From IMG/VR virus record IMGVR_UViG_3300011008_002750, positions 56,855 through 120,854 of that record: 64,000 nt of DNA, one strand, 5' to 3'. Shown here piece after piece: positions 45,849-63,535 of the stretch (position 1 is the stretch's first letter; the number at the start of each line of letters is the position of its first letter). A program made the position numbers and the translations under genes. Under the pieces are notes generated by a model. It saw only the letters and a program-made list of their open reading frames with translations. It was not told where the DNA came from and made no database searches. Source of the DNA: a virus. Its lineage: Duplodnaviria; Caudoviricetes.

Positions 45849-45997
45849 GCGTTCGTAGCTCAGTCGGTTTTAGAGCATCTGACTTTCTAGTGATGAGAAC
45901 ACTAAAAAATCTCAGAGTTCATTATGGATGTATGTAAGTTCGATTCTTACATGAACTCCTAATCAGAGGGTCGTGGATTCGAGTTCCACCGGACGCA
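45849..45997 (+). tRNA. tRNA-Lys(TTT) with a 73-nt anticodon intron (45887-45959)
   Basis: Removing the insert restores tctga-cttttaa-tcaga and a canonical cloverleaf. Confidence 0.82.
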
Positions 45998-46275: not shown

Positions 46276-47217
46276 ATGGAAAATTTTAAATGTATTTGTG
46301 GTAAAGAATTTAATAATAAATTATCATTAGGTGGGCATAAAACATCTTGTAAAATATATTAGGAAGAAAAACAAAAATAGTTAAGTATTTTATAGGAAAA
46401 TGAAATTAATTATTAGTATATATGTAATTGCGGTAAACGATTTAAAACATAGAGTAGTTTAAATTCACATGCAAGATGGTGTGAACAATATTAGAAAAAA
46501 GATTTTTCATCAAAATATTTTAATAAAGAATTAAAAATTTTTAGATGTGAATGTGGTTTCGAAACAAATAAAGGTAATTCGATTAATGGTCATTTTTCAC
46601 GATGTAATATACATAGAGCAGCTATTGGTAAAGAATCGGCACCAATATATAAAAATTTAAAAATTAGTTAGTATAATTTTAAAAATCTTGATAAAGAGCA
46701 ATTATTAAAAATTTGTTATAAAGGTATTGAAAGCCAACGAAAAATGTATAAAACTGGAGAATTGGTTGGTTGGTGTAAAGGATTAACAGCTGAAACAGAT
46801 GAAAGAATTGCTAAAATAGTTCAAACTCAAAAAAGAAATGGTATAACTGGAGGTTATAGAGAAAATTCAGGAATATGCAAACATGGAAAATATAATGGAA
46901 TTCATTGCGATAGCACTTGGGAATTAGCTTATATTTTATATTGTAATGATAATAATATTCCAATAAAAAGATGTGATAAAGTATTTGATTATTATGATAA
47001 TGAAGGAAATAAACATCGATATTATCCAGATTTTATAATAAATGAAAATGAAATTATAGAAATTAAAGGTAGAATTACTGACTAGTGGAAATTAAAGCTT
47101 CCGATAGTTGAAAGAGAACATATAAAAGTTTTATATAAAGAAGATATGAAAGATATTTTAAATTATTGTTATGAAAAATATGGTAATGATTTAACATATC
47201 TTTATGATAAAAAATAA
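46276..47217 (+). CDS. Zn-finger + TnsA-like PD-(D/E)XK endonuclease in the tRNA cluster, 313 aa (TAG=Gln)
   Basis: Three CxCG..F...SL..H...C repeats; CDSTWE, RYYPDF, IEIKG. Confidence 0.82.
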
Positions 47218-48778: not shown

Positions 48779-49018
48779 TTGACAACAGAAGAAAGACTTG
48801 CTGCACGAGAGCAGCGTCGTAAAGAAGATCAACAATTTCGTGAAAATCTTATTGAAGAGATTGCTAATGAATATGATTTTGGTCGTGCAATAGCTAAAGC
48901 ATGTGTTGATAAAGGTTGGGAAGATGGACATGCATATGGTTATAGTGAAGTTAGAACACAATCTGAAATTGCAGCTGATTTCGCAGAGAAAATTCTTGCA
49001 ATTATTGGACCGGCATAA
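48779..49018 (+). CDS. Hypothetical protein (TTG start)
   Basis: WEDGHAYGYSEV motif. Confidence 0.7.
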   Translation: MTTEERLAAREQRRKEDQQFRENLIEEIANEYDFGRAIAKACVDKGWEDGHAYGYSEVRTQSEIAADFAEKILAIIGPA

Positions 49019-49037
49019 TTATGAAACTAAAAATAAT

Positions 49038-49703
49038 ATGAGTGAAGTTAGTCGATATTTCGAGAAACAAATTTTGCAGTTTGATTCATCTAAGGTGAAG
49101 ATATTCTTTACCTCAGATACTCACTGGAACCATACCAACATAATTAAATACTGTAAGCGCCCATTTGCTAATGTAGAAGAAATGGACGAGGTGTTAATTG
49201 AGAATTGGAATGCTGTTATTGGTTCAGATGATATTGTTTTTCATCTTGGTGATTTTGCATGGGGTGGTTCTGAAGTTTGGAATAATGTTCTTGATAGATT
49301 GAACGGACATATTTATTTGATTCTTGGAAATCATGATATGAAAAATTTGCGTCAAGAATATATTTCAAAATTTGAAGCAGTTGCATTTCAGATGTATATT
49401 TATATTGACGGACGCGCAGTTTATTTGAATCATTACCCATTCCTTTGTTATGGTGGATCATATCGCGGTGAGCAAGCTGTATGGCAATTATTTGGGCATG
49501 TACATTCTCAGCCACAACATTATAATATTGACGATATAAATGACCTAGAAGTGAAAGAAATTCTCGGTAAAGACACTTATAGACTTCAGTATTTGATGCC
49601 CACTCAGTATGATGTAGGTGTAGATAATAATAATTATAAACCTATTAGTTGGGAAGAAGTTAAAGAGAAAATTCAAAAACAAATTGAAGCAAGTGAAGAT
49701 TAA
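49038..49703 (+). CDS. Calcineurin-like metallophosphoesterase
   Basis: TSDTHW.H, HLGDF, LGNHD, NHYP, GHVH, DVGVD. Confidence 0.9.
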   Translation: MSEVSRYFEKQILQFDSSKVKIFFTSDTHWNHTNIIKYCKRPFANVEEMDEVLIENWNAVIGSDDIVFHLGDFAWGGSEVWNNVLDRLNGHIYLILGNHDMKNLRQEYISKFEAVAFQMYIYIDGRAVYLNHYPFLCYGGSYRGEQAVWQLFGHVHSQPQHYNIDDINDLEVKEILGKDTYRLQYLMPTQYDVGVDNNNYKPISWEEVKEKIQKQIEASED

Positions 49704-49771: not shown

Positions 49772-50464
49772 ATGAAAATAAAAAATCAAACTTTGATGTA
49801 TTTATATCGTCAAGAAAAATGTCTTGGCCGTGATAATGATAGTTGCTGTAATGTAGACGAAAATCATAAAATTCGCTATATTCTTTCACCATATGAGTTA
49901 AAACCAGATTATGGAAAGATGTATGCAGATATGAAAGAAAACAAAGAGATGACATATGATGATTGGTTTTCAAAAAATTGGTATCCGGTTTTTTCCAACT
50001 TTAATGCAAAAGATTGCAAAATAATCGAAGAAACATATTGTGATGGTTGGAACGGTTTATTTAATATGTTACCCGTATTAAATAATGATATGTGCGCAGA
50101 AGTTGTATTCACGACTGAATATGCGGCTGATATAGCAGATGATTATGTTGAAGAGATTCTTAAAAAACAAAAAGATGATATTAGAGATTTGTTAGATAAA
50201 ATTAATCATACTGCAACATATGAATGTTATGTTTTGAAACGTAGATTAGATGATGTTATGCTTGGATGGGAAAATGATATACCATTTTATGAGTTGGAGG
50301 ATGGTTATGTAAAATGGGATGTACATGGTAGAGCAAATGTAACACTGTTATTTGATAAAAATCTTTGTGATTTATTTGATGATAATACAGAATATGATGA
50401 AAATGGTGAATATGTTCCATATAAAGCAACGGTAACAATTTCAAGTAATATTAAAAGATTATGA
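49772..50464 (+). CDS. Hypothetical protein
   Basis: 230-aa ORF. Confidence 0.72.
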   Translation: MKIKNQTLMYLYRQEKCLGRDNDSCCNVDENHKIRYILSPYELKPDYGKMYADMKENKEMTYDDWFSKNWYPVFSNFNAKDCKIIEETYCDGWNGLFNMLPVLNNDMCAEVVFTTEYAADIADDYVEEILKKQKDDIRDLLDKINHTATYECYVLKRRLDDVMLGWENDIPFYELEDGYVKWDVHGRANVTLLFDKNLCDLFDDNTEYDENGEYVPYKATVTISSNIKRL

Positions 50465-51249
50465 AAAAGCGAAGTAAAGATAGTCTCGGTGATCGCATGA
50501 AGCGATATGAGGCAGTAAGTAAAACTTCATTAGTTCAAAGAATGCCAGTTATTCTTCGTCTTGATGGATGTCATTTTCATACATTTACTAAAGGATTTGC
50601 AAAACCTTTTGATGATGTAATGATTAAATCTATGCAAGATACAATGAAATATTTGTGTGAAAATATTCAAGGTTGTGTATTTGGATATACGCAATCGGAT
50701 GAAATCACCCTTGTATTGGTTGATTATAAAAATTTGAATTCAAGTCAATGGTTTGATAATGAGGTTCAAAAGATGTGTTCAGTTGCAGCATCAATGGCAA
50801 GTATGCATTTTAACAAATGTTTTGCATATAATGCAATAAATGCAGGAAATGAAGAAGAATTGTTTAAAAAACACTGGGATGCATTTACTAAACATGGAGC
50901 ATATTTTGATTGCCGTGCATTTAATGTTCCTAAAGAGGATGTTTGCAACTGTATACTTTGGCGGCAGCAAGACGCGACAAGAAATTCAATTCAATCACTG
51001 GCACAATCTCAATTTTCTCAAAAACAAATGCACGGTTTAAGTTGTAATATGTTGCAAGATAAATTGATGGTTGAAAAAGGAATTAACTGGAATGATCTAG
51101 ATACTGTTAAAAAACGTGGTTCTGCTTGTATTAAAAATTATTATACAGAAAATGTAAAAACACGTTCTAAATGGGTTATTGATTATAATATGCCTATTTT
51201 GTCACAAGACAGAAATTATGTTGAACAATTTGTAATATTGTCAGATTGA
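50461..51249 (+). CDS. thg1: tRNA(His) guanylyltransferase / Thg1-like 3'-5' polymerase
   Basis: RMKRYE, RLDG.HFH.FT, YTQSDEI, FDCR, WRQQDA.RNSI, GINWN, KRG. Confidence 0.93.
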   Translation: MKKRSKDSLGDRMKRYEAVSKTSLVQRMPVILRLDGCHFHTFTKGFAKPFDDVMIKSMQDTMKYLCENIQGCVFGYTQSDEITLVLVDYKNLNSSQWFDNEVQKMCSVAASMASMHFNKCFAYNAINAGNEEELFKKHWDAFTKHGAYFDCRAFNVPKEDVCNCILWRQQDATRNSIQSLAQSQFSQKQMHGLSCNMLQDKLMVEKGINWNDLDTVKKRGSACIKNYYTENVKTRSKWVIDYNMPILSQDRNYVEQFVILSD

Positions 51250-52072: not shown

Positions 52073-52873
52073 ATGAAACGTTTAGTTATAGGTGACATAT
52101 ATGGACATTGGGATGGATTCAAAAAGATTTATGATCTTGAAAATCCTGATGAGGTTATAATGCTTGGAGATTATTTTGATAATTTTCATGGTTCTGATGA
52201 CAGTATATATGAATGTTATCGGGATATTCTTGATTTGCGTGGTGAACATCTTGCTTTGAAAAAAGGAGATTTTAAGATGTTAATTGGCAATCATGATTTT
52301 CATTATAATCACTGGTTTGAGAAATGTTCAGGGTATCGTTCATCTATGGCACGTAAGAATGCACTTATTTTGAATAATTATTCTCAACATTTACAATTTG
52401 TTTATGTCGATGAAATAAACAATACTATATATTCTCATGCAGGTGTAACAAATACTTGGTTAAAAGAGAATTTAGGAGACAAATATGATAAAGATTCATA
52501 TTTGTTTATTAATGAAATGAATCACCAAGCATTCAAATTTACTTATAAAGGCGGGGGCGATATGTATGGAAACACAATATATGCAAGTCCTATTTGGTGC
52601 CGGTCTCGTTCTTTGAATGAAGATAGTTTAATTAATAAAGATGGTGAGAAGATGGTTCAGATAGTTGGGCATACTCATAGTCAGACACCAATTTGTTATG
52701 ATTTTAATGGTTATGAAATGCCTACACAAGATGAAGATGGAATCAAATTAGTAAATGAACATTTTGAAGATGTTAAAATATATATAATAGATACGATGCC
52801 TAATTATTACATGGTTGAAGAATTAGATGATGATAGGAAATTAGTAAAACGTGAAATTAAACAATTAAAATAA
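52073..52873 (+). CDS. Calcineurin-like metallophosphoesterase (second)
   Basis: IGDIYG, LGDYFD, IGNHD, SHAG, VGHTH. Confidence 0.88.
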   Translation: MKRLVIGDIYGHWDGFKKIYDLENPDEVIMLGDYFDNFHGSDDSIYECYRDILDLRGEHLALKKGDFKMLIGNHDFHYNHWFEKCSGYRSSMARKNALILNNYSQHLQFVYVDEINNTIYSHAGVTNTWLKENLGDKYDKDSYLFINEMNHQAFKFTYKGGGDMYGNTIYASPIWCRSRSLNEDSLINKDGEKMVQIVGHTHSQTPICYDFNGYEMPTQDEDGIKLVNEHFEDVKIYIIDTMPNYYMVEELDDDRKLVKREIKQLK

Positions 52874-52912
52874 TTTTCATTATAATTTATAAAACTTTAA
52901 TTTTTTACAATT

Positions 52913-53536
52913 ATGGGATATGAAGTTCATTTTAAAGGAATGTCCAATGAAGTAATGGACAAATATAATAAGAAAAATAAAGGAATATATGGTTTTTCTT
53001 CTAATGGAGAATATAGGCTTTCTTTGAAAGTTTATACTTTAATGCCTCCAGAAACCCAAGAAAAATTAAGTAGAGTTCCAGATGTTAAGAATGCAGTTTT
53101 TAATATTAAACTTTATCTTGCCGGGCTTGAAAATGAAATTAATCAATCTGAGGAACAATTTGCATATGACAGGTGGAAAGAAGATGGCAAACTCTGGTAT
53201 TGTGGCTGGGAATATTCACATGATTATTGTAATCATACTAAAGAAGAGATTTATGATTATGTTGTTGAAAGATTAACTATTCTTAAATTCTGTGCAGAAA
53301 CTGGAGATTATTTTGATTCTGAAAGTCATTTTGATGATAAGGCCAGGGATATTGACGATATTCTTACATATTTTGAAGATATGATGAGAGAAATCAAGAT
53401 TTATGAAATTATGAATGACCTTAAAGATTATAGAGTTGGAGATGATGAAGATGAAGATAATGCTTATGAAACACATGCCACACAAGAATTATCCGATAAA
53501 AAGAGGGTGGAAATATCAGAAACACCAGAAAAATAA
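52913..53536 (+). CDS. Hypothetical acidic protein
   Basis: 207-aa ORF. Confidence 0.72.
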   Translation: MGYEVHFKGMSNEVMDKYNKKNKGIYGFSSNGEYRLSLKVYTLMPPETQEKLSRVPDVKNAVFNIKLYLAGLENEINQSEEQFAYDRWKEDGKLWYCGWEYSHDYCNHTKEEIYDYVVERLTILKFCAETGDYFDSESHFDDKARDIDDILTYFEDMMREIKIYEIMNDLKDYRVGDDEDEDNAYETHATQELSDKKRVEISETPEK

Positions 53537-53613
53537 ATAAAATAAATAATTAGAAGAAAATAAACTTTTTTCTAAAAATAAATAAAATAAATAATAAAAT
53601 TAAAAAATAATAA

Positions 53614-53797
53614 ATGCAAAATTATAGAGAACATAGTATGATGATTAATACAATTGGTGAACAACGTCCATCAACAGAACAACCATCTGTACTTTATAAT
53701 GATGCCAATTATTAGCTGAAGAGGTAAACCCTAATATCAGGAAACACAATATATAAAAGAAATTCCTTGGGTTTACAATAAACTCAAGGAATTTTTA
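53614..53797 (+). promoter_or_regulatory. Leader uORF (TAG four codons before TAA) plus terminator before tRNA/ncRNA region 2
   Basis: uORF 53614-53727; hairpin aattccttgggttta/taaactcaaggaatt followed by a T tract. Confidence 0.5.
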
Positions 53798-53821
53798 ATT
53801 AAAAAATAAAACAAAATTTAA

Positions 53822-54059
53822 CTTCTATTTTTTAGTTTAAGAAAAAAGTTGTAATTTTGCATTACCAAATTAAAAAAGAGTGTTCTTTAACAAATTGAAA
53901 TAAAGGTTTATTATTCCACTTGAGTTCTGGGAACTTATATGATAAGCGCACAATAAAATCATATTTGGGTGGCAGGTTCGAATCCTGAGTAAACCTCAAA
54001 AAAATAAAGCAAAATTTAACTTCTATTTTTTAGTTTAAGAAAAAAGTTGTAATTTTGCA
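53822..54059 (+). promoter_or_regulatory. Tandem duplicated promoters (copies 8 and 9) driving the RNA region
   Basis: Identical ~50-bp blocks; motif starts at 53822 and 54020. Confidence 0.8.
53903..53997 (+). ncRNA. Degenerate tRNA-like element
   Basis: aggttta/taaacct terminal stem and caggttcgaatcctg T-arm; no clear anticodon arm. Confidence 0.45.
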
Positions 54060-54386
54060 TCGTCATTCAAAAAAATGACAAAGTGATATTTGAAATTTTT
54101 ATTAACTTTTTTGAAAAAGAAAATAAACTTTTTTGAAAACTGTTATATAAAATAATAAATGATAATTGCAAAGAAATTTGCATGAAACATTTAAATGCGA
54201 TCCTTGACGTATTGAGATTAAAATTAAAGAAAGAAATTATTTTTCTATTTAAAGAAATTTAAATGGAAGTCAAATATATTTCGTATCAGTAATTTCTCCT
54301 GTGAAGGTGTTTATACTGATACAAAAGCCGCAACGCTTTGACACAACAAGCGTCACCCTTAAGGGATTAGGAGTTGAGTCGTAATT

Positions 54387-54501
54387 GGATGCGTGAAGCA
54401 GATGGCATGTGCTACTGGAGAAAATCTAAATCGTTTAAACCTCTAATGAGGGAGATAAGGAGAAGTAACAGGCTATGTAGGTTGGAATCCTACTGCATCC
54501 A
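54387..54501 (+). ncRNA. tRNA-like RNA with an expanded central region
   Basis: ggatgcg/tgcatcc acceptor, gtagg-ttggaat-cctac T-arm; no canonical anticodon loop. Confidence 0.5.
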
Positions 54502-54592
54502 CTTTATCAACATAAAACAGAAACATAGATCGAGGTATTAATTGGGAAAAATGACAAAGATCTAAACAGAAATATATTGTTGATATAAAATT

Positions 54593-54749
54593 GTAACCGT
54601 AGTCAAGTGGCCAACGACAGCAGACTGTTTAGTGAATAAAACACTAAAAAATTGAAGATGATATAGTAATGGCTGTAAATAAGTTCGAATCTTATATATC
54701 ATCCTAATCTGCCCCGAAAGGTTCGCAGGTTCGAATCCTGCCGGTTGCG
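54593..54749 (+). tRNA. tRNA-Asn(GTT) with a 76-nt anticodon intron (54629-54704) and a long variable arm
   Basis: Removing the insert gives gcaga-ctgttaa-tctgc; G73 favours Asn over Tyr. Confidence 0.72.
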
Positions 54750-54750
54750 C

Positions 54751-54876
54751 GAGGAAGAATGGTGGTTCAAATCCATCACATATTAGCAGAGTTCAAAACT
54801 CATTAAACTTGGTTAATTGCTAATATTGTAGTTTAGAATTGGTTGTAAAACATCCGTAGTAGGTCCTGGTTTCTTT
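54751..54876 (+). ncRNA. Permuted tRNA-like RNA (T-arm precedes D-arm)
   Basis: ggtgg-ttcaaat-ccatc, then acatattagca/tgctaatattgt stem, then gttt-agaattggttgta-aaac. Confidence 0.45.
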
Positions 54877-55210
54877 AGTGGGGATAAAATTCCATGGCGC
54901 AAACAAAAAGACGAAACTCCACACATTTTCCAGGTAACGCTGGTGGTACATCTATAAGCTTTGAATTGAAAACGCTGAAGCACCAATGTAGGTTGGTAGA
55001 ACCGAGGCCGTAACTCGGATAGATGGCAAAATAGTTAAAAGAAAACAATTTAGAAAGGTCGAGGAATCTCTATTTGTACAAATTGGCATTACGTCACCAG
55101 ACAATATTTGTTGAGGCTCTGAATAGGTCGCTCCTTGGAAGTAGGGGAATTGAGAATACAAATAGCGGGAGAAAGGTAGACTCGTGGGCTGGTTCGCTCT
55201 CCCAATTTTA

Positions 55211-56300
55211 TAGTTGAAGGAAAACAACTTGCCAAATCCTTATTAATTATTTATAAAAACCGCAGGCTCTGGTTGTTGATGATGTAAAATCTAATAAGTC
55301 TGACCTATGGCGCTAATCCTGAAATGATTATTAAGTCAGAGAGTAATCTAAAGTTAGTTTTAAGGTGACTAACATCTTAGTTGAAGGAAAACAACTTAAA
55401 TAAACCTAATTTACTCCTATCGTCTAGTGGTTTAGGACGCTCCCGGGTGGTAACATCAGTTCGAATCTGATTGGGAGTTCTTAGTTGAAGGAAAACAACT
55501 TAAAAAATCTGGCAGAAAACACACAGAGAACTGCATTAGATTAAATTAAATTACTCGTGTTGCGGAGGGAGAAAGCCTCATTAAATAACGAACACTTCAA
55601 AGAGTCTGAGGGCAACCGTGGGCTGTAAGTTTCTTCCTTATAGGGTTCTAGATAATCTATAAGTTTCTTTAACGGGAGCGGAAATAGTTGAAGGAATACA
55701 ACTATAAAAACCATAAGAATCTACCACTTGCACAAGGTAATGAAAAGGAATAGTCGTAATTAATTTAAGAAGTGCGTAAATTAAATTAGGTGGATATATT
55801 TTAACTATAAGAAGGAAAAACTTTATAACCAATTATTAACATACACATAGCGTCGCAACCGCGTCAAGAACGTTAGTTCTGTGTTGAAATAGAGGCATTG
55901 CATGGTAGACAGTAAGTCCTTCGTGTTAATAATTACTATAAGAAGGAGAACTTAATAATCTTCAAAACAACGCCGGTGATTGCTATGATAACCTAGTGGG
56001 TGGTTCCCGCTTCCGGCTCTAATAAGAAGGAAAACTTAAAAACCCAGTTATATGAAGTAGTCAAATTCGTATCGCTTGACCTGAGGTTCTGCCTTGGTAG
56101 TTTAATGAATGATATAAAACATCATATAACCAAAACAATAGTTGAAGGAAAACAACTTAAATAAACCCAGCAACCTTCTATCATTTGATGATACAGTAGG
56201 AGTAATTGTATAGAGTAGTAATAGCACGATGTATCATATGAGAGAGATGGTGCGTGGCTCTCACACTTATAGTTGAAGGAAAACAACTTTAAAAACCCAT
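55211..56300 (+). repeat. Array of 9 hairpin repeats (TAGTTGAAGGAAAACAACT-A-tract-CC and the TAAGAAGGAAAACTT variant) separating unique structured segments
   Basis: Copies start at 55211, 55378, 55482, 55685, 55806, 55937, 56021, 56139 and 56270; an outlying copy at 58377 and a degenerate copy at 55032. Confidence 0.9.
55413..55479 (+). ncRNA. tRNA-Glu-like RNA lacking the anticodon loop
   Basis: actccta/tgggagt acceptor, gtct-agtggttt-aggac D-arm, atcag-ttcgaat-ctgat T-arm; ctccc joins gggtg directly. Confidence 0.7.
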
Positions 56301-56664
56301 TGGCAGTTGAGGGTAATACACTGTACAAAGGACAAGTTGAATGTGAGATGGTCCCAGAAAGTTGACAGACACACAAGACTTTCAAATATACTTATTTTTA
56401 ATTACATAAATTATAGATTGATTGAGTAAAAATTAATCGACTACATTGACGATAGTTTTTCAATAAGGGGGGTAAATTCAAGACAATTTATTTAGGATTG
56501 TCTAAGTAGAATTTATTGCAGTCGGCTGTTGAAAAAACTCGTAGCTTTACCACCGGATTTTTTGTTGTAGAAGACGGGCTTTATAGAATTAGAAAGCGCA
56601 GATTAATTTTTTAAGATTTCTTTTTCAGATTTTCTTTAGCTGATTAAAGTAAAATCTGAAATTT

Positions 56665-56736
56665 GCACCATTAGTATAACGGTTATTATACATGATTTGT
56701 AATCTTGAGATCCTGGTTCGATTCCGGGATGGTGCT
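56665..56736 (+). tRNA. tRNA-Thr(TGT)
   Basis: Loop tttgtaa; cloverleaf. Confidence 0.88.
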
Positions 56737-56952
56737 CAAAATATTTTTCTTCGGGTTTTATATTGTGATTTAAGACGCCATATTGTTAGACGAAACTAAA
56801 ATTATAAAAACTTGGACGTAATAAAAGATTGAACGATAAGCAAAACTTGCCTCAGTGAGTAACCAAATCGAGGAGTAATTAACCACGATTTCTGAGAGCA
56901 CGGATTATTCATACCTGGCCAGGTGGATAATTGAAAGGTTACATTTTTATAT

Positions 56953-57026
56953 TGCCCTGTAGCTCAACTGGCTAGAGCGTCTGATTTTGGTTCAGAAGGT
57001 TGGGGATTCGAACTCCTCCAGGGCAA
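56953..57026 (+). tRNA. tRNA-Gln(TTG)
   Basis: tctga-ttttggt-tcaga; U1 start. Confidence 0.85.
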
Positions 57027-57106
57027 CAAAATTAATTGCATAAAGGAGTTCCTATTTTATTTAATTGCAAATTAAACTTACCATACTTCTCGCGATTAAT
57101 CTAAAT

Positions 57107-57181
57107 TGTCTTGTATATCAGCCTGGTTAGATTGTCATCCTGATAAGATGAAGGTCGTTGGTTCAAATCCAACCAAGACAA
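57107..57181 (+). tRNA. tRNA-Ile(GAT)
   Basis: tcatc-ctgataa-gatga. Confidence 0.88.
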
Positions 57182-57244
57182 CAAAATTGAAAAAATTATT
57201 TTTTAGTTCGAAATAAATATAATATAAAGTAATTCGAACTAATT

Positions 57245-58039
57245 ATGGAAAGCGTTAAAGGAAGTAAAAGAAAATATCATATTTTTTATAAAATAACAAA
57301 TAATATAAATAATCATTTTTATTATGGCGTACATAATACCGATAATATAAATGATAATTATATGGGTTCTGGAAAAAGATTATAGTATGCATATAAAAAA
57401 TATGGTATGGAAAATTTTACAAAGGAGAATTTAAAATTTTTTGATACTGCTAAAGAGGCATTTGAATACGAAGCTGATTATATAACAGAAGAATTAATTA
57501 AAGACCCTAATTGTTATAATATTGAAGGTGGAGGTAAAGGTTGGAATACTATTAATTAGGTATTAGTAAAAGATAAAGATGGAAATACATTTTTAATATC
57601 TAAAAATGATTAGCGATATTTAAATAAAGAATTAGTTAGTGCTTATAAGGGATATATATGTTGTAGAAAAAAAGGTGAAACTGAATTTTGTTGGATACCA
57701 AAAGAATTATACAATAAAAATGAATATGAAACCACATCATCGAATAATGTACCTGTAAAAGATAAATCTGGAAAATTTTATTTAGTATCTAAAGATGATC
57801 CACGATATTTAAATGGTGAATTAGTATCAATTTGGAAAGGTAAACATCATAAAGAAGAATCTAAACAAAAAATGCATAATACATTTTTAAAAATACATCA
57901 TTAGCAAGGCGAAAAAAATTCTCAATTTGGTACATGTTGGATTCATAATGATGAAGAATCTATTAAAATAAAGAAAGAACAATTAGAAGAATATATTTCT
58001 AATGGTTGGGTAAAAGGAAGAAAAATGTTTAAAAAATAA
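57245..58039 (+). CDS. GIY-YIG (Seg-like) homing endonuclease, 264 aa (TAG=Gln)
   Basis: IFYKITNNINNHFYYGVH...YMGSG...KKYG.ENF.KE...YNIEGGG; C-terminal GTCWIHN...GWVKGR. Confidence 0.88.
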
Positions 58040-58043
58040 TTAT

Positions 58044-58117
58044 AGGGTAGTAGTTCAATTGGTTAGAATGCTAGTTTTGGGAACTAGTGGTTGGGGAATC
58101 GTGCTCCCCCTACCCTA
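58044..58117 (+). tRNA. tRNA-Pro(TGG)
   Basis: ctagt-tttggga-actag. Confidence 0.82.
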
Positions 58118-58176
58118 CGAATTAAATAATTAAAAAACAATTAGTTATAAAATTTACATAAACTAACAGATTAAAT

Positions 58177-58291
58177 AAATCATGAGATACCGGTTCGAAT
58201 CCACATCGCGCAGAAGCATTTAGTCAGACTTCCAAGTGATAGTTGGCCTGAAATTGGTCTTAGAACATAAATGGACTAAAACACATGATTT
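58177..58291 (+). ncRNA. Possible permuted tRNA-like RNA
   Basis: aaatcatg/catgattt closing stem; GGTTCGAATCC first, ggcc-tgaaatt-ggtc later. Confidence 0.4.
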
Positions 58292-58554
58292 TAATTTTTA
58301 TTTCCAAAGTACACGGAGATAGTAATGGAGACGATGCGAGTGGTACTCCATGTTAAAAACAAAAGTCACTTACAAATAGTTGAAGGAAAACAACTATAAA
58401 AACCAGTTAATTAACTTTAATCTTGAAGGTGGTAGAGTAACCTTACAAAGCATATCTAGTAGACTCGGTTGAAGTATGCCAGGAGAGATGATAGAAGCCT
58501 AGGCTCTCAAATTTTTTGAAACTTTTTAATAATATAAGATATAATAATTAAAAT

Positions 58555-58625
58555 GGCGGGTTCGTATATCGGTAGTACTCAAGATTTTCATTCTTGCAAG
58601 AGGGGTCCGACTCCCCTACCCGCTA
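58555..58625 (+). tRNA. tRNA-Glu(TTC)
   Basis: caaga-ttttcat-tcttg. Confidence 0.85.
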
Positions 58626-58767
58626 CAACTAATTGATAATCAATCAGTTATAAATTTACAATTCAACGATTACTATATGTAAGTTCGGGATTTGGATGGG
58701 CACTACCAAATGGACGGAGAACCGCGTGCATTCGAGATTGGTGACAATACGGAGAGACGTATAATAA

Positions 58768-58841
58768 TGGAATGTAACTCAGTCGGTCAGAGTTCGAAGC
58801 TTATACCTTCGCGGTCGGGGGTTCAAGTCCCTCCATTCCAA
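58768..58841 (+). tRNA. tRNA-Ile(TAT)
   Basis: cgaag-cttatac-cttcg; canonical D- and T-arms. Confidence 0.85.
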
Positions 58842-58952
58842 CGTGAAAGGCTGTAGTGTTGGTTTTATTAGTTTTTTGTCAAAATGCAGTAACCTCCATA
58901 TCGTGCGAACAAATAATATGGTCAGGACAAAACATGAAAACTAATTTTATAT

Positions 58953-59033
58953 TGCGTGGTGTCAGAAGCTGGTATCTGGGTGGGCTCATAACCCACTGCG
59001 TAAGCCTCGGAGGTTCGAGTCCTCCCCACGCCA
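58953..59033 (+). tRNA. tRNA-Met(CAT), initiator-like
   Basis: gtggg-ctcataa-cccac (three G-C pairs), unpaired first position, extended variable loop. Confidence 0.8.
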
Positions 59034-59125
59034 CAAATTAGCTTAAAAATGGATAGTTCAATTTTTATTTCCACAACTTAAATAAATATAATATATTAAT
59101 ATATAAAAATAATTTATATTTAATT

Positions 59126-60022
59126 ATGGGAAATTGTAAATATTGTAATAAAGAATTTAAAAATGTTAAAAACCACGAAAAACATTGTAAATTAAATCCA
59201 GATTATGATAAAATTGATCATTCATATTTATCTAGAAATGGTGCTAATACATATCGTTATTTAGGTAAATTACGTGCTATAAATACACAAAATAACATAC
59301 ATGAACATCAAATTATTTGTGCAAAATGCGGAAAAGAATTTTCAGTAATAGTAAGCGACAATAATTTCAATAAAGGAAAATATAAACATTTTTGTTCACG
59401 AAGTTGTGCAAATTCTCATGTTGTATCAGATTAGACAAAAGAAAAAATAAGTAAAGGAGTTATACATAAAATATACGGGTCAAAAGAAAAACAAGAGGAA
59501 CATAAATTAAAAACGTGTGCTTGTTGTGGAAAATAGTATAGACCAACGTCATTAAGTAAATTTTGTAGTACAGACTGTAAAAATATTAGTATACATAATA
59601 AAATTATATCAGATGAAACTAGACAAAAATTATCAGAAGCTGGTAAGCATTCTGCAAAAGTTCAATCAGAAATACGACGTTCAAAAAATGAAATGAAATT
59701 TTGTACATTATGCGAGCAATATTTTAATAATGTAGAACATAATAAATCAATATTTAATGGTTGGGATGCAGATGTAATAATACATGATATAAAATATGCA
59801 ATTTTATGGAATGGCCCATGGCATTATAAAAAACTTAATAAAAAACATTCTGTAGAACAAGTACAAAATAGAGATAATATTAAAATTAATGAAATAATAA
59901 AATATGGTTACACGCCATATATTATTAAAGATTTAGGTAAATATAAAGAATCATTTGTACAAGAAAAATTTGATGAATTTTTAGAATTTTTAAAGAAAAA
60001 AGAGATAGAGGCCCATGTCTGA
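59126..60022 (+). CDS. Multi-Zn-finger Vsr-like endonuclease, 298 aa (TAG=Gln)
   Basis: CKYC, CAKCG, FCSRSCANSH; RRSKNE...GWDADVIIHDIKYAILWNGPWHY. Confidence 0.8.
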
Positions 60023-60170
60023 AACGACTTGTAGGTTCGAATCCTACTCATGGTGTTTCACTTTGAATGTTATATTTAATAAATTTATAAATGTTGCAAC
60101 ACTTTCTAATTAATAACATTCTTTAAGAAGTGGATCCTACTGTGATGGCGAAACAGGTAAACGCGTGGGT
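60011..60170 (+). ncRNA. Circularly permuted tRNA-Leu-like RNA
   Basis: The 3' half (variable arm, T-arm, tcatggt) precedes the 5' half (actgtga, D-arm, gtgggt); the halves are complementary in both acceptor and anticodon stems. Confidence 0.68.
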
Positions 60171-60376
60171 AAGATTGTTGTTGGCTATAACAACATTAAA
60201 TAAATATAGTACCTTTAACTAATATATTAGGTCAGACGCTAAATATATTCCTTAAATGAAAAGCAAAGTATTGAGTAATAGAATACATGAGGGTTCGGAC
60301 CCTGGAGTAGAAATCGACCAAAAAATGCATATAGTTATATGGGTGCAACTCCCATAATAATATTTTAGTTAATAAT

Positions 60377-61858: not shown

Positions 61859-62011
61859 GCCCCGGTAACTCAGTTGGACTTAGAGTAACAGCCTTCCTAG
61901 TGAATAAAACACTAAAAAATTGAAGCTTATAGATTTAAGAAATTTTTAAAGGAGCAAAACCTTTTATAAGCACTAAGCTGTGGGTCCTTGGTTCGAATCC
62001 AAGTCGGGGTA
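61859..62011 (+). tRNA. tRNA-Arg(TCT) with a 77-nt anticodon intron (61897-61973)
   Basis: Removing the insert gives acagc-cttctaa-gctgt; A20 in the D-loop. Confidence 0.8.
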
Positions 62012-62309: not shown

Positions 62310-63320
62310 ATGTTAAATTTTATGTATAAGTGCAAATATTGTGGAAAAGAATATGAAAAAGCAACTCAAGTAGCTGGACATACTGGAAGATGTAAAAATA
62401 ATCCAAATAGAATTAAAAATATTGAAAAAACAAACAAATATTTATAGAATGCTAATAAATAGCGGTTAGAAAATATAAAAGCTAATCCAAAATATCAAAA
62501 GAAAGAATATACATTTAAATGCAAAAAATGTGGAAAAATATATACATTAATATTAAATGAAAATCAATATAATAATGGTAAATATTCAAAATATTGTTCT
62601 AAATCATGTGCAAATAGTCATATAAATGAAAATAATGAAGGAGTTACAAAAAATTTAAAAATTTTTAAAAAATGTAACATTTGTGGAAAAGATACGTTAG
62701 TTTCTGCACAATTATCAAATAATAAAGTAAAATGTGATACATGTAAGCAAAATCAATATAATATTTTACCAACAGAATCATATAAAATTTGTAATATATG
62801 TAATAAACATTATAAATATATTTTAGGAATTAATACTAAAAAATTTTGTTGTAAAGAATGTCAAATGGAATATCATGAAAATAAATTAAAATATTTATCA
62901 ATAGAAACAAGAAATACTTTTTCAGAAACAGCTAGAAAAAATATAGCAAAAATGGAAAATATTAGACGTAGTAAAAATGAAATATATTTTTGTGAATTAT
63001 GCGAAAAATATTTTAAAAATGTTGAACATAATTTACCTTTATTTAATGGTTGGGATGCTGATATTATTATACATGATATAAAATATGCTATTATGTGGAA
63101 TGGAAAATGGCATTATGAAGAAATGAATTTTAAAGGTAGTCATTAGTCTTTAGCACAAATTCAAAATAGGGATAAAATAAAAGAAAAAGAAATTTTAAAT
63201 TATGGATATAAATTATACATTATAAAAGATATGGGCGGATATAATAAGAAATTTGTTGAAAAAGAATTTAACAATTTTATTATTTTTTTACATAATAACA
63301 ATATTATGAAAATGGAATAA
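62310..63320 (+). CDS. Multi-Zn-finger Vsr-like endonuclease (paralog of 59126..60022), 336 aa (TAG=Gln)
   Basis: Multiple CxxC; RRSKNE...GWDADIIIHDIKYAIMWNGKWHY. Confidence 0.8.
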
Positions 63321-63389: not shown

Positions 63390-63535
63390 GGCAGCTCAAT
63401 TGGGTCGAACAATAGTCTTTATAGTGAACAAAACGCACTAAAAATTGATGTTTATAGATTTATGAAATTTTAAAGGAGCAAAATCTTCTATATACATTAA
63501 GACACTGGTTGTGAGTTCAATCCTCACAACTGCCA
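63390..63535 (+). pseudogene. Degenerate tRNA carrying a fourth copy of the anticodon intron (about 63421-63497)
   Basis: Insert closely similar to the Arg intron; T-arm and 3' acceptor retained; D-arm and anticodon stem damaged. Confidence 0.65.

Follow-up and report, generated by a model that had tools for sequence, protein, structure and literature searches.

The stretch of DNA analysed here, a window of 64,000 nt, is the second half (positions 56,855 to 120,854) of a single viral contig of 120,854 nt with 27.5% GC (IMG/VR record IMGVR_UViG_3300011008_002750; Duplodnaviria, Caudoviricetes), and its subject is an array in which a short hairpin unit alternates with longer, folded, non-coding segments, called cargos below. 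Completeness of the contig is estimated at ~24% by CheckV. With the standard code open frames make up 63% of it, and decoding TAG as an amino acid raises this share to 87%. Its genes include those for a portal protein, a large terminase, a clamp loader and a helicase, and the terminase is 43% identical to those of the Prevotella phages Lak-A1 and Lak-C1, its best annotated matches. Judged from these reading frames, phage genes and terminase match, the contig is a fragment of a TAG-recoded megaphage that is distantly related to Lak. Sequencing runs with parts of the region come mostly from bovine, sheep and goat gut metagenomes.

The array is surrounded by 13 co-oriented tRNA genes and one intron-bearing tRNA gene. 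It contains no convincing open reading frame (ORF) and is richer in GC than its surroundings (35-40% versus 22-30% in the flanking genes), as a reading of the sequence alone, without database searches (the sequence-only reading), had proposed. Directly upstream of this RNA island lie genes for a Thg1-like tRNA 5'-end repair enzyme (PF04446, E 4e-32) and two calcineurin-like phosphoesterases (48798-49703, 50461-51249 and 52073-52873), and the rest of the annotated flanks encodes zinc-finger proteins and unknowns. The units, cargos and other features are collected in Table 1.

Table 1. Hairpin units, cargo RNAs and other features (window positions unless stated otherwise; bits are scores of the covariance models R1 for the hairpin unit and R2 for family A; L numbers are loci fetched from other contigs)
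Feature	Position	Strand	Remarks
Possible degenerate hairpin unit TAGTTAAAAGAAAACAATTTAGAAAGG, before the first conserved cargo	55032..55058	+	by eye only; no R1 match
Cargo 0, conserved structured RNA of ~160 nt	55059..55210	+	homologues of 78-87% identity in L029/L131, L004/L051, L037/L098
Hairpin unit 1, canonical stem, atypical tail TGCCAAATCC	55211..55239	+	R1 48.2 bits
Cargo 1	55240..55377	+	no homologue in the loci fetched
Hairpin unit 2	55378..55406	+	R1 48.4 bits
Cargo 2, tRNA mimic with acceptor, D and T arms; a stub replaces the anticodon arm	55413..55479	+	
Hairpin unit 3	55482..55509	+	R1 44 bits
Cargo 3	55510..55684	+	94% identical copy in L037/L098
Hairpin unit 4, loop AAGGAATA	55685..55712	+	R1 42.5 bits
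Cargo 4	55713..55805	+	no homologue found in the loci fetched
Hairpin unit 5, shortened-stem variant TAAG/CTT	55806..55830	+	R1 15.2 bits
Cargo 5, closed by an 11-bp terminal stem	55831..55936	+	fold z-score -2.2
Hairpin unit 6, variant, loop AAGGAGAA	55937..55960	+	R1 11.7 bits
Cargo 6	55961..56019	+	partial homologue in L037/L098
Hairpin unit 7, variant	56020..56045	+	R1 25.3 bits
Cargo 7, closed by a 9-bp terminal stem	56046..56138	+	fold z-score -3.0
Hairpin unit 8	56139..56167	+	R1 51.1 bits
Cargo 8	56168..56269	+	99% copy in L149
Hairpin unit 9	56270..56298	+	R1 58.5 bits
Cargo 9, family A member	56295..56386	+	R2 66.6 bits
Hairpin unit 10, isolated	58377..58404	+	R1 52.3 bits
Cargo 10, second family A member	58420..58511	+	R2 55.3 bits
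Intron of tRNA-Asn(GTT): TAGTG-AATAAAA-CACTA-AAAAAA, then a mini tRNA mimic	54629..54704	+	
Four TnpB-like genes (PF07282) with in-frame TAG, upstream of the window	contig positions 5119-5352, 15702-15935, 37133-37366, 44906-45139		
Leader-type hairpin loci			L036, L045, L050, L056, L057, L059, L062-L065, L067, L069, L071, L078, L079, L081, L083, L084, L087, L091, L097, L100, L102, L104, L107, L115

The ten hairpin copies that the sequence-only reading had picked out were all recovered, every one on the + strand, by a pattern scan and by R1, a covariance model built from 40 copies in 8 contigs and run on the window with filters off. Seven have the canonical form TAGTTG-AAGGAA(A/T)A-CAACT followed by an A-rich tail that mostly ends in CC, and score 42-58 bits (n=7), while three are variants with a shortened stem, TAAG-AAGGARAA-CTT, at 25, 15 and 12 bits; the rest of the 64 kb is at the level of noise. 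Spacing from start to start is 84-203 nt, again as first read, and a scan of the entire 120,854-nt contig found copies nowhere beyond the ten. With at most one mismatch allowed, the window has 23 occurrences of the core GAAGGARAAC where 6.05 are expected, a roughly four-fold enrichment that 0 of 100 shuffles reached. Folding energies of -0.4 to -5.8 kcal/mol make the hairpin a weak one. All ten copies keep the AAGGA loop, the shortened-stem variants included, and in these variants both halves of the stem are reduced together, which is a compensated change.

R1 sorts its matches in other contigs into three classes, namely an array type at 34-59 bits, a leader type at 26-33 bits and core-only matches at 24.6 bits. 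Among the matches listed there are about 150 full-length units of the array type, in arrays of up to 13 (L047, L116, L149, L051), and in the related IMG/VR and metagenome contigs the arrays always lie within tRNA islands and on the tRNA strand. The exact 19-mer of the hairpin is present in six IMG/VR contigs of 53-381 kb and in at least 120 metagenome stretches, and matches to an 18-mer only in marine, soil and other metagenomes (the core alone) were set aside as chance. Among 50,697 phage records the array had no BLASTN match. A scan for the hairpin-plus-tail pattern covered one genome per species for 185,579 prokaryotes and gave 0 matches, and hence no host source. The sequence-only reading had described a conserved loop on a changing stem, which holds within this genome but not across relatives: in the 40 aligned copies the GTTG/CAAC stem, the first loop base and the last A's of the loop are invariant, and the loop varies in sequence and in length (6-10 nt). 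Since the stem changes are compensated, loop length varies around an invariant stem and the unit is strand-specific, it behaves as a hairpin acting at the RNA level rather than as a site in duplex DNA. The combination of weak pairing with invariant sequence points to recognition by a sequence-specific factor and not to a passive structural block.

The CsrA motif is a GGA within a hairpin loop, and Bacillus phage SP82 and cryIIIA provide known examples of polypurine 5' stabilisers. The SD-like (Shine-Dalgarno-like) loops of the unit (AAGGAAAA/AAGGAGAA) might accordingly bind the 30S subunit or a CsrA-type protein, and the array would then be a stabiliser of the STAB-SD type or a protein sponge, for which the constancy of AAGGA in the window speaks. 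However, relatives' loops often read AGAAAA, ATGTAAA, AATGAAA or AAAGAAA and so lack GGA, and the hairpins stand 84-400 nt apart with conserved structured RNAs between them, unlike CsrB-type sponges. We consider a stabiliser or sponge very improbable.

The cargos are 59-175 nt long, and BLAST against the fetched loci gave homologues for 7 of the 11 in the window. In cargo 0, 41 pairs are predicted and 6 of them show compensatory changes in a comparison of only four distinct sequences. The anticodon-less tRNA that had been seen in cargo 2 is real, and three other contigs (L029/L131 and L135) preserve its acceptor, D and T arms; the T stem shows compensatory changes, whereas the central stub is variable. 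Neither ARAGORN nor Rfam calls it. The terminal stems noticed on cargos 5 and 7 are also present, and these are the two cargos with significant single-sequence fold z-scores, those of the other 7 of 9 not being significant. The cargos had been thought unrelated to one another, but cargos 9 and 10 belong to one family. This family, here called A and described by the model R2, is a three-stem RNA and the commonest cargo, with 44 R2 matches, 39 of them distinct. Its plan is ACCCGUUG-P1-ACAAAG-P2-GAGAG(A/U)UGA..CUCUCAAA, in which P2 is followed by CCAAGAGAG(A/U)UGA, a variable part and then CUAGACUCUCAAA. In its alignment, which was fitted to the model, 98.7% of cells pair, as compared with 32-56% in slid controls; 10 of 12 pairs show double changes, and 0 of 500 shuffles reach any of the measures. 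Judged by structure and conservation, the cargos are real RNAs.

None of this corresponds to a family in Rfam. A search with Rfam 15 gave tRNA matches only, at gathering score over the window and down to E=5 over 54000-59500, and family A is not in that database. The region is thus not one large known non-coding RNA, as had been considered at the outset; GOLLD, ROOL, HEARO, YrlA and the known ribozymes were excluded in the absence of any Rfam covariance-model match. Theta (HDV-like) ribozymes were also set aside, with no link to the repeat and no match to the HDV family in Rfam, and by eye none of the attC, k-turn (box C/D) and hammerhead motifs fits the hairpin or stem 3 of family A. Like CRISPR arrays, this one has a conserved hairpin-forming repeat between unique segments, and processing probably takes place at the repeat. 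Spacers, however, are hypervariable, foreign-derived and of uniform length (~26-72 nt), whereas the cargos span 59-175 nt, are structured and supported by covariation, and in several cases are conserved at 78-99% in other phages, so the array is not CRISPR, as the first reading had also held. No cas genes occur among the annotated flanking ORFs, which is the extent of that search, in a contig that covers ~24% of the genome. The suggestion that the cargos are guides fared less well: adaptive guides or spacers are unlikely, with several cargos conserved between phages and some of them paralogous.

The ends of the array differ from one another. It begins with a possible, degenerate unit and ends without one, and terminal cargos end with a stem and a T tract. 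In internal family A cargos this tract is interrupted (AAATTTA) and does not make a strong terminator. The last stem of cargo 10 is followed by a T tract, a strong sigma70-like promoter at 58516-58545 and a tRNA-Glu gene; this promoter (TTGAAA-18-TATAAT, 11/12, 9 nt before the tRNA) is the best of its kind in the region, and on this evidence promoters of the sigma70 type may be active in this phage, a surprise given a Bacteroidota host.

Several further elements were noted in and beside arrays. A conserved non-coding block without a hairpin unit inside follows the array directly (56396-56664), with homologues of 87-89% in L151, L053, L117 and L004/L051 and of 74-79% in L030 and L031. The element at 58170-58300 starts like a T arm (ggttcgaatcc), continues with agtcagacttccaagtgatagttggcctgaaattggtcttag, is conserved in at least 10 loci (among them L117, L151, L120, L051, L135, L047, L004, L031 and L033) and may be a permuted tRNA-like RNA. 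In L030 (7485-7548) two hairpin units stand back to back, 10 nt apart, and the second begins with CCGTTGA like the 5' ends of family A, whose first stem is also closed by UUG/CAA; this hints that the hairpin and stem 1 of family A are related.

The same hairpin occurs in a second setting. Among the matches listed, 31 are mRNA leaders. They come from a different group of contigs, which have a GC content of 34-41% and small genes of phage-like appearance; one such contig (L087) reads open in the standard code. Each leader has a near-consensus promoter, TTGAC(A/T), 16-18 nt (mostly 17), TATA(A/C)T, then 7-10 nt (mostly 9-10) and a hairpin identical to that of the array, AGTTGAAGGAAAACAACT, which is followed by (C/T)AAA(A)CCAGAAAGG, 6-10 nt and ATG. 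There are several copies per contig, in front of the AGAAAGG (SD) and ATG of small, early-looking genes, and two copies carry AGGTG/CACC double changes. From the promoter geometry, the leader hairpin would lie within ~1-3 nt of the transcript start.

A look-alike of the hairpin occurs in a third setting. Four short tRNA introns in the contig interrupt the anticodon between positions 35 and 36 (45887-45959, 54629-54704, 61897-61973 and 63421-63497), and each consists of one nucleotide, TAGTG, an A-rich loop of 7-9 nt, CACTA, five or six A's and then a mini tRNA mimic, so that all four begin 1 nt upstream of the look-alike hairpin. A joint pattern that covers both types of hairpin finds 8 sites in the contig, all on the + strand, namely four array units and the four intron starts, against 0.075 expected. 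R1 leaves the intron hairpins at the level of noise, and the link between intron and array hairpins therefore rests on this shared architecture. In one relative, G002 (L002), the tRNA-Asn gene lacks the intron. Only an RNA run showed the spliced junction 54628>54705, which could also come from an intron-less relative.

Transcription of the array can be approached through assembled contigs from one RNA run (X2, bovine gut), in which gaps in cover are uninterpretable. Contigs of this run on hairpin and cargo have a depth of 37-64, as compared with 3.5-4.3 on the neighbouring ORF, and they continue through the hairpin into the cargo. One near-identical contig (157 nt, depth 36.8) covers 56141-56286, that is, a hairpin, cargo 8 and the next hairpin. 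These contigs lend weak support to expression of the array. In Lak megaphages, Devoto et al. (2019; PMC6784885; 10.1101/356790) found large intergenic regions that are very highly expressed, as well as 'enigmatic' tRNA introns.

In principle, a phage-specific RNA polymerase or sigma factor could use each unit as its promoter, possibly of the N4-like hairpin kind, and start transcription near the CC. A conserved sequence of ~30 nt at a fixed distance from each cargo is what such a promoter would look like, and many cargos end with a stem and then T-rich sequence. This reading is contradicted by the leaders, where the same unit stands downstream of complete sigma70-type promoters, by the look-alike inside tRNA genes, and by the RNA-run contigs that span the hairpin into the cargo; moreover, the unit is absent elsewhere in the contig, including before tRNAs and protein genes. 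It is the least probable of the readings weighed here. A sigma70 promoter in front of each array hairpin was rejected as well, such a site being found at the right distance in 1 of 113 distinct array hairpins, and promoter-like sites in the region show no excess (46 versus 40.7 expected).

The leaders also bear on the idea that the hairpins are boxB/nut-like (or put-like) sites of processive antitermination, where a phage factor would load onto RNA polymerase at each hairpin and read through the island. A boxB-like role was among the first proposals, and the leaders agree with part of it: the unit resembles lambda nut as a short hairpin with a purine-rich loop, 5'-proximal in transcripts and likely protein-bound, with promoter-proximal copies in the 31 leaders of other phage-like contigs. 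Long untranslated arrays with stems and T-rich ends would also be prone to termination. However, no boxA-like motif flanks the hairpin (upstream there is only a T/A-rich TTA, downstream only the A tail), its loop has 6-10 nt instead of 5, and it is repeated many times per array. A nut site needs no strict placement at the transcript start and offers no reason for look-alikes at the 5' edge of tRNA introns, both of which a boxB-like role leaves unexplained. Against it also stand the interrupted T tract of internal family A cargos and a scan of 52800-60200 that found no terminator-like sites. Antitermination therefore appears unlikely, although it has more in its favour than a role as promoter, stabiliser or sponge.

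Shuffling of cargos between conserved repeats in related phages, which the sequence-only reading had put forward as something to look for, was seen. The order of cargo families varies from phage to phage; families 8 and 1, for instance, follow one another in that order in G002 and in the reverse order in G004, and contigs of related phages from DNA runs join 55407>55483, 56168>56267 and 56166>58424, which are unit boundaries. Cassettes are shuffled between phages with breakpoints at the repeat. This raises the question of whether the unit is a DNA-level recombination linker like the PeSL (promoter-early stem-loop) cassettes that Arbiol et al. (2010) described in T4-type phages, kept for cassette exchange and with little or no RNA function in the array. 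The cassette-precise joints and the differing cargo order speak for such a linker, as do the leader copies, which show the PeSL build of promoter, stem-loop, SD and ATG (PMC2839356). On the other hand, a compensated stem, a free loop length and an orientation that is always that of transcription indicate selection on an RNA or single-strand fold, and recombination requires homology only, so it can be a by-product. We regard a pure linker as improbable.

The explanation that we find best, and hold with middling confidence, is that the hairpin is the protein-recognised 5' boundary of each RNA module, at which a precursor is cut and/or the 5' end is protected. The region is part of an island of tRNAs and non-coding RNAs, and its transcript is most likely a long precursor. 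In each module a short, weak, sequence-specific hairpin (TAGTTG, a purine-rich loop, CAACT) is followed by a single-stranded, A-rich stretch up to the CC and then by a folded cargo. A sequence-specific factor would bind the hairpin, either an enzyme of the RNase E/G or Y type guided by the adjacent stem-loop or a dedicated phage protein, and the cut would fall in the A/U-rich linker just upstream. The hairpin would then remain as a 5'-terminal handle or protection of the freed RNA, and the 3' stem of many cargos would shield the other end. With a unit of ~30 nt on either side of each cargo, homologous recombination would shuffle the cassettes between phages as well.

Leaders and introns, two independent settings, both place this kind of hairpin with its 5' edge where a 5' end of the RNA would be expected, at the transcript start in the former and at the 5' splice site in the latter. 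Array units have no promoters, and therefore 5' ends within the array would come from cleavage. That the unit marks a 5' boundary is suggested by an array that starts with a possible, degenerate unit and ends without one, by the lack of any hairpin directly after a canonical tRNA (0 of 123), and by G003, in which a single hairpin lies between two RNAs whose outer sides are bounded by tRNAs. A neighbouring tRNA or simple stem-loop can switch on cleavage by RNase E (PMC9841416), which makes this enzyme a plausible host route; a phage protein is equally possible. A minihelix for RNase P was rejected on inspection, since the CC sits 7-8 nt past the stem (3 nt with an extended stem) and not after a single discriminator base. 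The proposal of the sequence-only reading that the array is a polycistronic small-RNA cassette agrees with what was found insofar as the array is non-coding, co-oriented and without promoters of its own; transcription as a single precursor we infer. Its view of the repeat as a processing or protein-binding mark is likewise the best reading of an RNA-level hairpin, with cut site, enzyme and cargo roles all putative.

Some points weigh against this explanation. The hairpin of the introns is not significantly similar to that of the array by R1 (11.7 bits, E about 6). The transcript start of the leaders and the ends of the array RNAs are predictions, the former from promoter geometry. Support from the RNA run consists of contigs, and the run may contain DNA. 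A few hairpins have a real tRNA directly after them, where RNase P alone would suffice. Finally, no nuclease or binding protein was identified, and the conserved neighbouring ORF 52913-53536, upstream of the island, matches no Pfam family, falls only into unnamed Atlas clusters and gave an unusable single-sequence AlphaFold model (pLDDT 39).

A more far-reaching and doubtful idea, which we rate as slightly less unlikely than antitermination, is that Lak-type megaphages have a dedicated cut-and-join RNA system, with hairpin and A tail as its recognition handle. One and the same factor would cut at the hairpin's 5' edge, both to free the array RNAs and to excise the introns with their tRNA mimics, and perhaps also to mature the permuted tRNA-like genes nearby, with exons rejoined by phage repair enzymes. 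Relatives have an Rnl2-type RNA ligase, and the Thg1-like gene and the metallophosphoesterase genes adjoin the island. The ligase is present in G004 and G005 and weak in G003, and none was found in the 24% of the present genome that is covered; RtcB and an archaeal-type tRNA splicing endonuclease were not found in this contig and four relatives. If true, this would be a protein-dependent route of tRNA splicing that is new to bacteria and their viruses.

Other genes of the contig were also examined. Three paralogous zinc-finger ORFs (46276-47217, 58934-60022 and 62310-63320) have an N-terminal C2H2-type motif, MYxCKYCGK...H..RCK.NPNR. The family, in which Pfam recognises a zinc finger alone or nothing, recurs at 8 loci within tRNA islands, and its members might act as free-standing homing endonucleases or bind nucleic acids. 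The ORF at 57245-58039, which lies amid the tRNA genes, contains an internal direct repeat of 83 nt, and four of its codons are in-frame TAG. By eye it resembles a GIY-YIG homing endonuclease, but there is no such Pfam match. The four TnpB-like genes lie at least 66 kb from the array and are unrelated to it.

The tRNA cluster of phage T4 includes two small stable RNAs, and tRNAs punctuate mitochondrial transcripts. The present array is like both in that co-oriented stable RNAs without promoters of their own lie in a tRNA island and would be cut at structured elements, and a cargo flanked by tRNAs here has no hairpin, as in tRNA punctuation. It differs in that a hairpin of 19 nt with an A-rich tail replaces the tRNA as the mark, and at least 10 cargos stand in a row. 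With PeSL it shares a conserved short stem-loop unit that flanks each small cassette and cassette-precise exchange between relatives (PMC2839356). However, the array unit has no promoter, its stem is weak and AU-rich with an A tail where PeSL has a G/C-rich terminator, there is no sequence similarity, and its cargo is non-coding RNA instead of ORFan genes. Integron attC sites differ as well, at 57-141 bp as compared with ~30 nt, with a RYYYAAC...GTTRRRY order that fits neither strand of the unit, and there is no integrase in the annotated flanks.

The Lak phages (PMC6784885; 10.1101/356790) belong to the same clade and share with this one TAG recoding, short tRNA introns that bear tRNA mimics, and non-coding blocks that reach ~1.5 kb. 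Lak-A1 and Lak-B5 differ in having neither the hairpin pattern nor the cargos, and their published regions were not dissected. Searches of Rfam and the full-text literature gave no description of the hairpin, family A or the array. The general kind is known, in structured marks that punctuate polycistronic stable RNAs and in PeSL-like cassette linkers, and the hairpin and cargo RNAs themselves are undescribed in the sources searched.

Megaphages of the Lak type occur widely in the guts of humans and animals, and the array gives an anatomy to their large non-coding regions, made up of a reusable 5' hairpin module and at least 10 conserved RNA families, none of which is in Rfam. The occurrence of the hairpin or its look-alike in arrays, at mRNA starts and in tRNA introns suggests a common signal that defines RNA ends. 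Such a shared signal might explain how the 'enigmatic' tRNA introns of Lak phages are removed, and the hairpin module could serve as a portable RNA boundary element.

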